Sequence record: KC690136
Source: Escherichia phage JES2013
Length of the DNA stretch: 64,000 bases
Direction: 5' to 3' (one strand)
Shown: in pieces, positions 2,920 through 9,216 of the stretch
Numbering within the stretch: position 1 is the stretch's first letter
Layout: every line of letters starts with the position of its first letter
Translations under genes and position numbers: made by a program
Notes under the pieces: generated by a model
Seen by the model: only the letters and a program-made list of their open reading frames with translations
Database searches by the model: none
What the model was told of the DNA's origin: nothing

Positions 2920-4104
2920 TTAAGCTTTAGCCAAAATGGCGCTAAACTCTTCACCAAACTCTTTTACAATCTTCATCAGGTTTGGGTATGCTTTGATCAG
3001 CTGAGCAACGATCTTGTCACGACCTTTACCGATAAGCAAGGCATTTCCTAAGGCATTAGGTTTCATCATCGCCATAAAGACTGAAAATACAAAATCTCGG
3101 TTCTCGTCCTTGAAGTTTTCCCAAAGGAAATCGAGAAAGTTTGCCACACAGCTAACAAGATCTTCGTCGGAGATACTTGCATTTTCCATCATATTACGAA
3201 TAGCGATGCAACCTTCAGATCCAAGAATCCACAAGATGTCTGGCTGTTTAGGACCTACGTATTCTTTGCAACCTCCTGCCATAATCCGACCGATTTCCGG
3301 TAAGTTGCGTTTCTTGGTGTGGTAAGTCCAGATCTCTACCGCTGCAGTGTGACCAATAGCACCTTGCAGAAGAACACGGGCCATAGCGTCAGAAATAATA
3401 CCGCTGTCAAAATCGTGCAAGATATCAGATGCAGCAACCCAAGATCGCGGTGTGGCAAAAGATGGACAATTAATCTCAGCCATGGCCTCATAATTATCGA
3501 TAGCTGATGGAACTCTTTTCAGATATCCAATTACAGAGGAGTGCACCCCATTAAGGAATGCGTAGTCCTCAATAAACACCTCTGCATTGCTTGTAACCTC
3601 TACAATGATAAAACGGTTAGCCAGAGGGGCTTCGAGCGCCGAAAGAACCGCACCATCTGTAGAACGGTTACCAGCAGCCACAAAAACAGAACCCTTAGGG
3701 AATGCATAGGTACCGCACTTGTGGTCAAGCATAATTTGCATTGCAACCTTTTGCAGGTAGTTATCTGCATGAGTGAGCTCATCCAGAAAGATAATTCCGC
3801 TCCAGTCAGGATCCGCAGGCCAAAATTCTGGAATTGCAAACACTGTACGTGTAGTTCCATCCGCTTCTACAGGGATAGGTAGCCCAGATAAGTCGGCAGG
3901 ATCTTTATCTGACAGTCGCACGTCAACAAGGTTGTCATCTCGCTCACCGAACATATTATCAGCGATCTGCTTCATCACCTGGCTTTTACCCACACCCATT
4001 GGTCCCAAAATTAGGACAGATCGGCTATGACGTTGGGCAAACTGAATAATAGCTGGCAACTCACGGACAGTGATTTGACCACTTTCGAATACGTTTCTTG
4101 ACAT
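2920..4104 (-). CDS. MoxR-like AAA+ ATPase (AAA_5 type)
   Basis: 394 aa. Walker A LILGPMGVGKSQ, Walker B IIFLDELTHA, sensor region VFVAAGN. Single-AAA domain of MoxR/CbbQ/CobS type. Confidence 0.7.
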   Translation of the reverse strand: MSRNVFESGQITVRELPAIIQFAQRHSRSVLILGPMGVGKSQVMKQIADNMFGERDDNLVDVRLSDKDPADLSGLPIPVEADGTTRTVFAIPEFWPADPDWSGIIFLDELTHADNYLQKVAMQIMLDHKCGTYAFPKGSVFVAAGNRSTDGAVLSALEAPLANRFIIVEVTSNAEVFIEDYAFLNGVHSSVIGYLKRVPSAIDNYEAMAEINCPSFATPRSWVAASDILHDFDSGIISDAMARVLLQGAIGHTAAVEIWTYHTKKRNLPEIGRIMAGGCKEYVGPKQPDILWILGSEGCIAIRNMMENASISDEDLVSCVANFLDFLWENFKDENRDFVFSVFMAMMKPNALGNALLIGKGRDKIVAQLIKAYPNLMKIVKEFGEEFSAILAKA

Positions 4105-5706: not shown

Positions 5707-6602
5707 ATCCCCGCATAAATTAAACTTGTATCAGTATACTTCTTTAACGGGTAAATATCCTGTCCGTAAATGTAGTCATTAAACACCTCATCTACCCAAA
5801 GACTGCATTTATACCCCATCATTTCTAAAACGCCCATCTCTTCATCAGTGAATTTATCACCACTCTTGCAGGATGTCAATACCTCATTTTGTACTCTTGC
5901 CAGTTCAAAAATGTTGTTAGCAATGTCACTATTAACGATCAGGTATTCACCCAAAGGGTGTGCGGCATTAAAGATGCACAGTGGGAGGTTGACGTAATAG
6001 TCCCCAGGTGTATAGAAATTGTTGAGGTCCTTCACCAGAACATTCTTATCAGTCACTTCATTTATAACATCGTGCATATCGCACATCTTTATATGCTTGA
6101 GGATTCCATCTCCCATCACAAAATAAAAACTTGCTGAGATACTCTCGGCATAGATCTTACTGGACCCGTTGTAGTTGTATTTTACGCGAATACTCACGGG
6201 AGTTTTTCCTGTCGCGTTAGCCATCATCCAAAGGAACGGAAGTTCAAACTTCTCTTCTGAGGAAACAAAAGGTGAAGTTGCCAGAGATCGGAAACCTCCA
6301 GAAAAGTTGAAAGTCACAGAACCGCTCCGGCGGTATGATACCGCGTATTCTACTTTTATATCGACATACCCGTTGGAATAGGTGTGTCCTTCATTATCTA
6401 AATATGTCCACTTATCAGACCCAGATACCAATCTACGCTCAATAACCTTCATCACTATAGGAATTAGTGGGTTGGTACAAACCGCTTTTGAAGTAGCTTT
6501 AGCATCTAAAGCCTCGTAAATTGCAGAAAGGATGTCTCCAGCTGAGAGATTGGTTGTTATATCCTGTTGCCACCGAGTACTAAAACTGTTAAGATTTGCC
6601 AT
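5703..6602 (-). CDS. hypothetical protein, first gene of leftward early operon
   Basis: 299 aa. AGGAG lies 9 nt upstream of the ATG, and a strong promoter lies immediately upstream. Confidence 0.55.
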   Translation of the reverse strand: MANLNSFSTRWQQDITTNLSAGDILSAIYEALDAKATSKAVCTNPLIPIVMKVIERRLVSGSDKWTYLDNEGHTYSNGYVDIKVEYAVSYRRSGSVTFNFSGGFRSLATSPFVSSEEKFELPFLWMMANATGKTPVSIRVKYNYNGSSKIYAESISASFYFVMGDGILKHIKMCDMHDVINEVTDKNVLVKDLNNFYTPGDYYVNLPLCIFNAAHPLGEYLIVNSDIANNIFELARVQNEVLTSCKSGDKFTDEEMGVLEMMGYKCSLWVDEVFNDYIYGQDIYPLKKYTDTSLIYAGI

Positions 6603-6642
6603 GAGTGAGTGCTCCTATGTTGGTTTTCTTTTGAATGGGTGC

Positions 6643-6671
6643 ACTATATCGGAGATTTAGAGTAAAGTCAA
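6643..6671 (-). promoter_or_regulatory. sigma70-like early promoter (TTGACT - 17 nt - TATAGT)
   Basis: Read on the minus strand: TTGACTttactctaaatctccgaTATAGT, followed by AGGAG and the ATG at 6602. Confidence 0.6.
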
Positions 6672-6684
6672 CACGTTTTTGATG

Positions 6685-6713
6685 TTGACATCTGTTGAGA
6701 CAATTGATACGAT
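6685..6713 (+). promoter_or_regulatory. sigma70-like early promoter (TTGACA - 17 nt - TACGAT), divergent partner
   Basis: TTGACAtctgttgagacaattgaTACGAT. It lies inside the first 35 nt of tracked ORF 6679.., so the real start is probably downstream. Confidence 0.5.
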
Positions 6714-6744
6714 TTCTTCACTTACAGAGCACGAGAGACAACTC

Positions 6745-7722
6745 ATGAATCTTGAAAAATATTATACACCAGAAGAGTTAGAGCGCTTGCTCAAAAAATA
6801 TAGACGCAAACAGAATAACGCACGGAAACGAGATATAGAGTTCGACCTGTCGTGGGAAGAATACCTCCTATTTGGTAAAAAACTTTTAGGGGAGGGGGTA
6901 TGCGACTACACCCTTATACCTTTCGACATGCACACAGATGAGAACGGACTGGGAAATCCTTTCTACCCATCTTTGGAGCGTATAGATGATGAAGGTCCTT
7001 ACGCAATTGACAATTGTTGTGTGGTAGGGTTGAGGTGCAATGCTCTGAAAGACTGTCTGGTAGATAAAAAGACTGCAATCCTGATTAAAGACAAAACTGA
7101 TCGAAAAATTGTCCAGCAGATGATGCTCCACCTGAGCGAAGAGCGTATGGAGAAATTGAAAGGTGATTATACTTTTGAAGATTTCATCTTGCAATACGGG
7201 ACAGAAGAAGATAAACTAGCACTATTTGACGAAGAGGAAGAAGATATGTCACCGATGCAGGATTTTAAAAATTTCATGGCTGATCGTGCAGCCAACAAAC
7301 ACATTTCAGACATCGTAAACGAGACTGTGACAGAAGAAATTGAAGAACAGACCTCTGAAGAAGAAAAAGAGCCTCAGGAGGTTGAAGAGGAGATTGCAGA
7401 AGAGGTTCCTGCACTGCCTGATGATGTTGAGATTGCTAAGGCTTACACTTTCTATTGTCAAACGTTCTACGATGCAGGTATGAAAGTTGATCTGTCGTTC
7501 AGCCAATTTAAGAGTTCGTATATTCGCAAATGCTGTGCTTTAACTGGTGAACGTCTCGGAGCTGGACTTAAACCACTGTTGGTGACCGACTGGAATAAAG
7601 GTTTCACTAAAGGAAACTTTATGGTAGTATCTCCAATTATGGAGAAAGCTATGACAGATCTTATGAAGACCACCCGCATGACAATGACCGAGTTGGCAGG
7701 TATTTTCAAACACGTTAAATAA
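6745..7722 (+). CDS. hypothetical protein with two degenerate HNH/EndoVII-like segments and an acidic linker
   Basis: Tracked ORF is 6679..7722; start trimmed to Met-23 (MNLEK) because the promoter overlaps the tracked start. Segment LERIDDEGPYAIDNCCVVGLRCNALK resembles an HNH motif with the histidines replaced. Confidence 0.45.
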   Translation: MNLEKYYTPEELERLLKKYRRKQNNARKRDIEFDLSWEEYLLFGKKLLGEGVCDYTLIPFDMHTDENGLGNPFYPSLERIDDEGPYAIDNCCVVGLRCNALKDCLVDKKTAILIKDKTDRKIVQQMMLHLSEERMEKLKGDYTFEDFILQYGTEEDKLALFDEEEEDMSPMQDFKNFMADRAANKHISDIVNETVTEEIEEQTSEEEKEPQEVEEEIAEEVPALPDDVEIAKAYTFYCQTFYDAGMKVDLSFSQFKSSYIRKCCALTGERLGAGLKPLLVTDWNKGFTKGNFMVVSPIMEKAMTDLMKTTRMTMTELAGIFKHVK

Positions 7723-7727
7723 TGACA

Positions 7728-7755
7728 GGGGCCAATGGCCCCTTCTGGAGTTTTA
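7728..7755 (+). terminator. hairpin GGGGCC-AAT-GGCCCC plus U-rich tail (terminator or attenuator)
   Basis: Perfect 6-bp GC stem right after the stop at 7722; the tracked ATG at 7735 sits in the loop. Confidence 0.4.
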
Positions 7756-9216
7756 ATGGATAGCAGAAGTTCAGAAATCATTGCCTCACAGAAAGATGAT
7801 GCCCTGAGAATGTTGCAGGCTGCACGTATGTATCTCCTTGAAAAGCTGCCGTTTTATGGCACACTACTGTCAGGGTTGCAGTTCGTAGAAAACCACACAT
7901 GGTGCTCCACCATGGCAACCGACCATAAACGCATCTATTACAGTCCTGAGTTCATTATGGGATTGGCTGATGAACGCAAGGCTATTCTTAAGGCTTCTCT
8001 AACTGACGAGCAGTTTGAGATGGCTGAAGTTTTCTATTCCCCAAAATCTGTGAAAGAGGTGGCCTTCCTTCTGTCACATGAGGTGGGACATATTATCTGT
8101 GATCACCTGGTCCGTGGTAAAAGCTTTGAGCCGGAACTGTTCAATATTGCTTGTGATCACGTTATCAACACAGGTCTTGTGGTTGACTTTAGCAAGCCCC
8201 CTTGTGTTTTCTTCCCGAAGGGGAAAAGCACTACGTTCGTGAAAGGTAAGCCTTTTGGATTCTTAGCCAGCTGCTACTGCGACATGAAGTTTCATGGATG
8301 GATTGCTGAGAACGTCTATGCAGTTCTTGATAAGCAAAGAGATCAGAATAACGGTAAAAGTAAGAGCGGTAAAGGTGAGAACTCTCAAGGAGATAAGCGA
8401 CAAACCGATGATCACATGAGTGGTAACGGTGGCACCAGTGATGATCTTGGAAAGGCTATGGGGTATGATCAGCCACAACCTGTAATCAGTCAATCTGATA
8501 AAGATCAGGCCATGCAGGACTCTGGCGATATGCTGGAGGCAGCAATGCAAGCTTCCGGAGGCCGTTGCCCTGAGGCGGTTCGTGAGTTTGTCAAGAATAG
8601 AGGTAAGCCTGTAATCAATTATATAGACATCATCAAGCAACGCATGTTGTCTAAACGAAAGGCTGAACTGACCTACAGAAAACCTGGTCGCCGATCTGGG
8701 TCTTTGACCAGCACAATGCGAAAAGTTGGGGCTATAAACAAGAACCAGCACGTTATTGTTCCTGGTCGTAATCCGGAAAACACCATAGATATTGTGGTAG
8801 CTTTAGACGTTTCTGGCTCGATCTCTCAAAGAACTTTAAAGAAAATGTTCAATGAAATCACCGGATTGTGCAATCTGTATAAAGAGTTTAAGGTTACAAT
8901 GTTCTGTTGGTCAACCGAGATTGGAGAGGTCAAAGTATACACTCGCGGCAACATAGACGAGATGATCAACTATGAGGTCCACTCAACATGGGGCACAACA
9001 GCTGCTTGCGTGTTCGAGTATCTGGATGCCAACATACCAAATGCAAAAGATGTCATCGTCCTGACCGACCTATACTTTGAGCATAACTTTGAACAAAAGG
9101 CTGTTGACAACAAGTGGAAAAAGTACGATACTTTATGGGTTCTCACCGAAGGGTATAATAAAAATTATATCCCGAGCTTTGGGAAAACTGTGGAATTAAT
9201 CGAGTACGCCAAGTAA
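7756..9216 (+). CDS. two-domain protein: N-terminal putative zinc metallopeptidase (HExxH) plus C-terminal vWA domain
   Basis: Tracked ORF is 7735..9216; start trimmed to the in-frame ATG at 7756, which has GGAG upstream. Motifs LSHEVGHIICDH and ACDHVIN, then vWA MIDAS-like VVALDVSGSIS. Confidence 0.7.
   Translation: MDSRSSEIIASQKDDALRMLQAARMYLLEKLPFYGTLLSGLQFVENHTWCSTMATDHKRIYYSPEFIMGLADERKAILKASLTDEQFEMAEVFYSPKSVKEVAFLLSHEVGHIICDHLVRGKSFEPELFNIACDHVINTGLVVDFSKPPCVFFPKGKSTTFVKGKPFGFLASCYCDMKFHGWIAENVYAVLDKQRDQNNGKSKSGKGENSQGDKRQTDDHMSGNGGTSDDLGKAMGYDQPQPVISQSDKDQAMQDSGDMLEAAMQASGGRCPEAVREFVKNRGKPVINYIDIIKQRMLSKRKAELTYRKPGRRSGSLTSTMRKVGAINKNQHVIVPGRNPENTIDIVVALDVSGSISQRTLKKMFNEITGLCNLYKEFKVTMFCWSTEIGEVKVYTRGNIDEMINYEVHSTWGTTAACVFEYLDANIPNAKDVIVLTDLYFEHNFEQKAVDNKWKKYDTLWVLTEGYNKNYIPSFGKTVELIEYAK

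Follow-up and report, generated by a model that had tools for sequence, protein, structure and literature searches.

The Srd-like protein gp11 of an rV5-like Escherichia phage: two predicted His-Me-finger domains, one with a PacI-type residue set

PacI is a restriction endonuclease of 142 aa that works as a dimer (PMC3384342). Each subunit of the homodimer (PDB 3LDY/3M7K) carries a pair of Cys4 zinc sites, with Asp as a metal ligand, and PacI represents group 20 of the His-Me-finger proteins. Three His-Me-finger groups lack the histidine, and in the group of PacI a tyrosine substitutes for it (PMC5714182). PacI is an active enzyme without this histidine; it uses a tyrosine of the Omega-loop instead, and an Asp and an Asn coordinate its single metal (PMC5714182, PMC4081073). 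In inactivated His-Me fingers, the histidine and its tyrosine substitute are both gone (PMC5714182). The PacI group is absent from Pfam, CDD and SCOP (Jablonska et al. 2017, PMC5714182).

The other described relative is Srd of phage T4 (NP_049634; phrog_1400). T4 Srd is reported to bind RNase E in its catalytic N-terminal half and to stimulate host mRNA decay (PMC13232886, PMC7430671, PMC4980113); RNase E binding is reported for T4 Srd only, and T4 Srd is not described as a nuclease. The authors of the rV5 genome assigned gp11 as Srd-like by PSI-BLAST (PMC3606486), and the label "anti-sigma factor" that gp11 carries is derived from Srd. A literature search yielded neither a paper connecting Srd with the HNH or PacI fold nor functional data on Vequintavirus early genes. 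The work on T4 Srd and RNase E is said to come from Qi et al. 2015.

The gene analyzed here, gp11 of an rV5-like phage, encodes a protein that resembles both PacI and T4 Srd and differs from each. Compared with PacI, both zinc sites are lost, the metal ligand position is Glu in about 90% of the copies and not Asp, and one intact-looking and one degenerate copy of the domain are fused in a single chain via an acidic linker. PacI is a restriction enzyme, whereas gp11 is a core and presumably early phage gene whose product has only a putative cleavage activity. T4 Srd has one such domain, homologous to the N-terminal domain of gp11 and with the E-R...Y...N...N residue set present in both, followed by an unrelated C-terminal half. 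Unlike T4 Srd, gp11 has a helical extension, the acidic linker and the second, degenerate copy. Like T4 Srd, gp11 would be an early gene of a large lytic coliphage.

The gp11 gene and its surroundings

The window, i.e., the whole stretch of 64,000 nt analyzed (Escherichia phage JES2013, record KC690136), is from an rV5-like Vequintavirus, and gp11 is ORF11/gp11 of phage rV5. The gp11 stretch is the same as that of E. coli O157 typing phage 14 (100% identity) and has 99.8% identity to phage rV5, with equal coordinates (Table 1). The gene is labeled "anti-sigma factor; Srd-like protein" in GenBank and "HNH endonuclease" in RefSeq; "anti-termination protein" and "hypothetical protein" are found in other records. 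ATG 6745 is the likely start codon, in preference to TTG 6787 and TTG 6679, since homologues with about 39% identity align from residues 1–3 and a start at TTG 6787 would cut the helix modeled at residues 9–28. TTG 6787 is the start of ORF11 in both GenBank and RefSeq and drops 14 conserved N-terminal residues. TTG 6679 is used by gene callers, which results in many database proteins of 346–347 aa; it is disfavored because it lies upstream of the promoter -35 box (6685).

Table 1. Positions of gp11, its predicted domains and neighboring elements in the window
Feature	Position	Strand	Remarks
MoxR-like AAA ATPase gene	2920–4104	-	leftward operon
Divergent leftward sigma70-like site	6671–6643	-	back-to-back with the site at 6685–6713
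Inverted repeat GTCAACA(N9)TGTTGAC	6667–6689		includes the -35 boxes of the divergent sites
Sigma70-like promoter site, TTGACA-17-(TG)TACGAT	6685–6713	+	10/12 consensus match; annotated P11 in rV5
gp11 coding sequence	6745–7722	+	ATG 6745 to TAA 7720–7722; 325 aa plus stop; Srd-like / phrog_3118 family
Predicted N-terminal PacI-type His-Me-finger domain, residues 1–110	6745–7074	+	basic helix 9–28, C53-x-Y55, beta1 75–79, Omega-loop, beta2 91–95, helix 96–107
Active-site-like motif E78-R79-x-D81...Y86...N90...C98-N99..K102	6976–7050	+	ungapped alignment to PacI
Conserved helical extension of the N-domain, residues 111–165	7075–7239	+	AlphaFold2 and family alignment
Disordered acidic linker, residues 166–221	7240–7407	+	net charge -16
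Predicted C-terminal degenerate PacI-type domain, residues 222–325	7408–7719	+	basic; retains C264, D282, N291
Perfect 7-bp hairpin AGGGGCC-AAT-GGCCCCT	7727–7743	+	GC-rich; directly 3' of the gp11 stop codon
gp12 gene	7735–9216	+	493 aa

Gp11 is a core gene of Vequintavirus and is vertically inherited. It is present in 116 Vequintavirus records, and the flanking genes are present in 117 and 116. An orthologue with 39% identity is found in the Seunavirus SSE121, where it is syntenic and in an equivalent position with a promoter. The gp11 region (6600–7800) diverges more than its flanks: 54 of the 116 Vequintavirus records have less than 95% identity, six of these less than 90%, compared with 21 of 117 records for gp12 and 14 of 116 for the MoxR gene below 95% and none below 90%. 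The family alignment suggests that the linker is the most variable part of gp11. Sixteen records named "Campylobacter phage" (MG0656xx, e.g., H11, H12, H19 and H23, with C. jejuni given as the host) show 94–99% identity to E. coli rV5-like phages in this region, and their host label looks doubtful.

The sigma70-like site P11 directly precedes gp11, which is the first gene downstream of it. The SSE121 orthologue has an analogous promoter site upstream, with an 11/12 match. Because of the sigma70-type site and the first-gene placement, and likewise in SSE121, expression of gp11 early in infection from P11 is a reasonable inference from the consensus match. This is in keeping with the preliminary description of the locus, where gp11 was proposed to be expressed first from a rightward early promoter. 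The -35 boxes of P11 and of the divergent leftward site form part of an inverted repeat, which may result simply from the presence of both TTGAC boxes or may represent an operator.

The next gene, gp12, encodes a protein with a DUF2201_N putative metallopeptidase domain (3.5e-28) and a DUF2201 VWA-like domain (4e-11), and the RefSeq label "HNH endonuclease" for it looks wrong. It is one intact ORF in the window and is split into ORF12 and ORF13 in the rV5 GenBank record; the region shows 100% identity to typing phage 14 and 98.9% identity to rV5, with a 1-nt length difference. MoxR ATPases are usually paired with VWA proteins. The MoxR-like AAA ATPase encoded in the leftward operon, with weak matches to the AAA models of Pfam, may thus be a partner of gp12 across the divergent promoter region, and this neighborhood of an ATPase and a VWA protein is also present in SSE121. 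The hairpin between gp11 and gp12 has the gp12 ATG (7735) in its loop and 3' arm, an SD-like AGGGG in its 5' arm, and no T-run. Its RNA fold has a value of -18 kcal/mol (z = -2.7). It may function in control of gp12 translation, or as an RNA processing or stability element.

Predicted folds and family relationships

The AlphaFold2 model of gp11, built on a 44-sequence family alignment, has a mean pLDDT of 83, with confident folded regions at residues 1–165 and 222–325. The linker between them is disordered, with pLDDT values < 50 over most of its length, and 20 of its 56 residues are D or E; among homologues it is 16–72 aa long and variable in sequence. Each half displays the order helix, helix, beta, beta, alpha. 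The pTM value is 0.54, and the packing of the two domains against each other is thus not established by the model. In the helical extension that follows the N-domain core, D119, L138 and Y142 show little or no variation among homologues. The whole protein is very acidic (computed pI 4.7, net charge -23), the N-domain core is mildly acidic (pI 5.05), and the C-domain is basic (pI 9.06).

A Foldseek comparison of the full-length model with the PDB gives weak E values, the best being 0.038 for PacI and none reaching 1e-3, yet the proteins listed are almost all of the HNH type: PacI, the Cas9 HNH domain, McrA, Gme, Cap5, Hpy99I, EndoVII and colicin E2. By fold comparison, PacI is the closest solved structure for both halves. 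Judged from the model, both halves of gp11 have the HNH / His-Me-finger (beta-beta-alpha) fold. The preliminary description had recognized two HNH-like segments in this protein, the second near the C-terminus after an acidic linker. The fold prediction, the Foldseek list and the profile links described below all agree with this, i.e., similarity to the HNH fold is found for both segments, and the second copy and the linker correspond to residues 222–325 and 166–221.

Profile searches and a structure prediction had been proposed at the same time as ways to examine the gene. The structure prediction gave the two beta-beta-alpha folds with PacI closest; in the profile searches Pfam and NCBIfam yielded nothing relevant for gp11, but PHROG nuclease families and the PacI profile were matched. 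A Pfam scan of 41 diverse gp11 relatives likewise shows no HNH family. Since the Pfam models also fail to match the sequences of PacI and T4 Srd, the missing Pfam match represents a gap in the library and is not evidence against the fold. Searches of the PDB by sequence, with the single gp11 sequence or with the family profile, gave no match; PacI was reached only by fold comparison and by a broader profile. PADLOC gave nothing meaningful.

In PHROGs the best match of the whole protein is phrog_3118, "HNH endonuclease" (2e-111). Residues ~13–120 match phrog_3322 "endonuclease" (7.5e-14), phrog_4592 "decoy of host sigma70" (8e-13), phrog_1035 "endonuclease VII" (4.5e-10) and phrog_1400 "Srd anti-sigma factor" (2.3e-9). 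PacI itself matches phrog_1035 (2.5e-11), phrog_3322 (1.5e-4) and phrog_3118, the family of gp11 (1.7e-3). The "endonuclease VII" family phrog_1035 is therefore really a PacI-like family, as PacI is among its matches. Canonical HNH enzymes and T4 endonuclease VII (PF01844, PF02945) have in common with gp11 the beta-beta-alpha-metal superfold, the Asn of the Omega-loop and the metal-binding Asn of the helix. A specific kinship to endonuclease VII is rejected: there is no PF02945 match, D-H-D-H motif or Cys4 zinc site in gp11, and the N-type profile compared with T4 endonuclease VII by hhalign gives 3% (E 0.014).

The Srd-type family comprises hundreds to thousands of clusters at 50% identity. 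At E ≤ 1e-10 an exhaustive HMMER search gives 530 representatives; at E ≤ 1e-3 the number is 11,556, a figure that may contain linker-driven matches. With the N-domain profile, a word-indexed homologue search gave no more than 42 short proteins, which are unnamed and lack Pfam domains. Broad profiles were made from 250 N-type and 233 C-type domains of 247 proteins, with PacI and T4 Srd excluded, and 227 of these 247 relatives have the architecture of one N-type and one C-type domain. Tandem N-type copies are also present: four in P0180 (852 aa) and P0215 (827 aa), and two in P0238, P0241 and P0247; the E/D-R...Y...N...N set is intact in most of these copies. Single-chain multimers of the PacI-like fold thus seem to have arisen repeatedly. 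Both the N-plus-C arrangement and the two- and four-fold N-type arrangements fit a fold whose working form is a dimer, as in PacI.

Comparison of the N-type with the C-type profile by hhalign gives 98% (E 2.3e-13), and in some relatives the N and C HMMs match one and the same region (e.g., P0181, 6e-23 and 7e-13). Direct comparison of the N half of gp11 with its C half by BLASTP is not significant, and with the narrow profile of 44 sequences the P values are only 7e-4 for N versus C and 2e-3 for N versus PacI, so that broad profiles are needed. The profile similarity indicates that the two halves of gp11 arose by an old internal duplication.

Active-site residues in the two domains

The peptide GVCDYTLIPFD...LERIDDEGPYAIDNCCVVGLRCNALK represents residues 51–102 of gp11 and contains the region comparable to the PacI active site. 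The N-type profile aligns with PacI over 87 columns in the expected register (hhalign 95%, E 3.3e-8). Without gaps, PacI C63, Y65, D92, R93 and D95 correspond to gp11 C53, Y55, E78, R79 and D81, and PacI Y100, N104, C112, N113 and K116 correspond to Y86, N90, C98, N99 and K102. Y100 is deduced here to be the catalytic tyrosine of PacI because it is the sole tyrosine in the inter-strand loop. By profile and structure similarity, the N-domain belongs with the PacI-like, tyrosine-type branch that is without the histidine.

These positions are conserved to a very high degree in a census of 252 N-type domains in which PacI and T4 Srd are counted. Position 78 is E in 225 and D in 25, R79 and N90 are present in all 252, and Y86 is found in 251. 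Position 99 is N in 247 and H in 4, and K102 is present in 238 domains. The combined (E/D)-R-Y-N-N pattern is maintained in 246 of the 252. The Cys4 zinc ligands of PacI (C4/C7/C24/C27 and C63/C66/C109/C112) are not retained and only C53, the equivalent of C63, is conserved; positions 56, 95 and 98 in the gp11 family are mostly T, x and A, with C98 (the equivalent of C112) in only 26 of 252.

The general-base histidine at the C-terminus of beta1 is missing in both halves, with R79 at this position in the N-domain and V280 in the C-domain. Thus the statement in the preliminary description that the catalytic histidine is replaced by Glu/Arg is borne out, with E78-R79 in place of the D-H dyad. 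The suggestion made there, that a protein without the histidine could be non-cleaving, fits only one of the two domains. It is consistent with the C-domain, where the active-site residues are lost; it does not follow for the N-domain, as PacI also has no histidine, yet is active. The N-domain keeps the PacI residue set almost invariantly, and therefore cannot be called inactive from its sequence.

In the C-domain the equivalents of E78, R79, Y86, N99 and K102 are L279, V280, F287, E300 and M303, and of the Omega-loop Asn and the helix Asn only the first (N291) is kept. The same is seen across 233 C-type domains. Here the counterparts of C53, D81 and N90 are kept, as C in 222, D in 212 and N in 225, and the equivalents of E78, R79 and Y55 are L/F/Y/W, I/V and L/I/M, and those of Y86, N99 and K102 are F/V/I/L, E/Q/G/A and M/L, respectively. 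The residues conserved in the N-type copy alone are exactly those that correspond to the PacI active site, and those shared by both copies are, from this comparison, determinants of the fold. [quoted passage not shown] Such a contrast would be expected if the N copy were selected for a function directed at a metal and a phosphodiester and the C copy were not. The C-domain looks catalytically dead. In this it is similar to Smad MH1 and the ENPP nuclease-like domains, where the histidine and its tyrosine substitute are lost and the fold is kept; this likeness applies to the C-domain only, as the N-domain keeps the PacI-type set, and there is no sequence relationship.

Possible function and meaning for the family

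The N-terminal ~130 residues of T4 Srd align with gp11 residues 8–143 by BLASTP (E 4e-7), and Srd residues 30–80 also align with gp11 249–295 (E 1e-3), and this gave the initial hint that the two halves of gp11 are of one domain type. The N-type profile compared with T4 Srd by hhalign gives 98.7% (E 1.5e-16). The possibility of a hidden second domain copy in the C-terminal half of Srd is rejected, as residues 100–248 show no similarity to the gp11-family C-domain profile (hhalign 0.4%). Gp11 is thus not a full-length Srd orthologue, and its N-plus-C architecture represents a distinct and common form.

On these comparisons we favor, at about even probability, a model of gp11 as an immediate-early host-takeover protein that acts on nucleic acid and in which one chain forms an asymmetric PacI-like pseudo-dimer. 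Its expression would be driven by the sigma70 promoter, with gp11 at the head of the rightward early operon. In the N-domain, E78 at the end of beta1 would be the acidic metal ligand, with R79 the adjacent Arg, and Y86 would replace the histidine; N90 would be the structural Asn and N99 the metal-binding Asn of the helix, followed by K102. The N-domain most likely depends on a divalent metal and binds a phosphodiester, and cutting or nicking of nucleic acid is its probable activity. The basic, non-catalytic C-domain would stand in for the second PacI subunit and supply binding of the substrate or of a partner. Gp11 would then act on host nucleic acid, either directly as a nuclease or nickase, or together with RNase E as T4 Srd does. 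Several properties count against a nuclease. Both Cys4 zinc sites are lost and Glu is the usual ligand, and the acidity of the protein and of its N-domain core is unusual for a DNA enzyme. T4 Srd, the only characterized relative, carries the same residue set, yet is described as an RNase E stimulator and not as a nuclease.

This last point leads to the main rival, which is compatible with the nuclease reading: gp11 may be a non-catalytic Srd-type adaptor that binds the catalytic half of RNase E and speeds host mRNA decay, with the PacI-like site only holding RNA or the partner. The homology of the N-domain to T4 Srd (by BLASTP, hhalign and phrog_1400), the same assignment by the rV5 authors (PMC3606486) and the function given for Srd in PMC13232886, PMC7430671 and PMC4980113 are all consistent with an adaptor, as is the place of both as early genes in lytic coliphages, and strong acidity suits a protein-binding factor. 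We nevertheless consider an adaptor rather unlikely, as only ~90–140 residues are in common with Srd, Srd 100–248 is unlike the gp11 C-domain, and a metal-and-tyrosine set that is near-absolute in 252 domains exceeds the needs of docking. The suggestion of the preliminary description, a domesticated, non-cleaving fold that would serve as a DNA-binding regulator, here taken to control transcription at the early-to-late switch, has a precedent in Smad MH1, which binds DNA although it is an inactivated His-Me finger (PMC5714182); the C-domain is inactivated and basic, the zinc sites are lost, and the gene is first in the early operon. The N-domain, however, has not decayed, whereas inactivated fingers lose histidine and tyrosine as the gp11 C-domain does, no helix-turn-helix or other regulator domain is found in Pfam or NCBIfam, and the net charge is -23; a regulator of this kind is improbable.

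The two functions implied by existing labels are both very improbable. An anti-sigma factor or decoy of sigma70/sigmaS, the legacy annotation, goes back to the name once given to T4 Srd ("similarity with rpoD") and to annotation copied from it; the one further indication is an NCBIfam match to a sigma-70 subfamily that stays below threshold (E 0.043, 14 bits versus a cut-off of 126) at residues 164–218, beginning just ahead of the acidic linker and continuing into it. Pfam shows no match to a sigma region, both domains are predicted His-Me fingers with no sigma-like fold among the structural matches, and the experiments cited for T4 Srd point to RNase E and not to RNA polymerase. Without sigma-region similarity or a sigma-like fold, an anti-sigma function is rejected. 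The RefSeq label "HNH endonuclease" would fit a free-standing homing endonuclease, i.e., a selfish mobile HNH gene, and phage HNH genes are often of the homing type. Homing endonuclease genes have a sporadic distribution. The presence of gp11 among close relatives is not sporadic, as it has a fixed locus in 116 records compared with 116–117 for the flanks, is syntenic in another genus at 39% identity, and is first in an operon with its own promoter; a homing endonuclease is rejected on this basis.

The nuclease model of gp11 can be extended to the whole Srd family, T4 Srd included. The members would be PacI-type, tyrosine-dependent His-Me-finger nucleases and not anti-sigma decoys or passive RNase E adaptors, gp11 would be a built-in nickase or single-site nuclease, with one live and one dead site, in the first minutes of infection, and the RNase E-dependent mRNA decay of Srd would use its own metal/tyrosine site. 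This extension is tentative, and we hold it as possible but doubtful.

The gp11 gene and its kinship to Srd were already known (PMC3606486), and automated pipelines label it "HNH". The placement of the Srd-type domain in the tyrosine-type PacI branch that lacks the histidine, the intact active-site set, and the tandem architecture of one live and one dead copy were not found in the searchable literature. The finding is an insight at the level of annotation on a known gene family. Hundreds of phage genomes label this gene "anti-sigma factor", "anti-termination protein" or generic "HNH endonuclease", and the PacI branch to which it is assigned here has neither the histidine nor a Pfam model. For T4 Srd, informative point mutants can be predicted from the conserved E-R...Y...N...N site. 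The presence of an apparently live and an apparently dead copy in one chain separates residues of function from residues of the fold, and this arrangement could represent a natural nickase scaffold.
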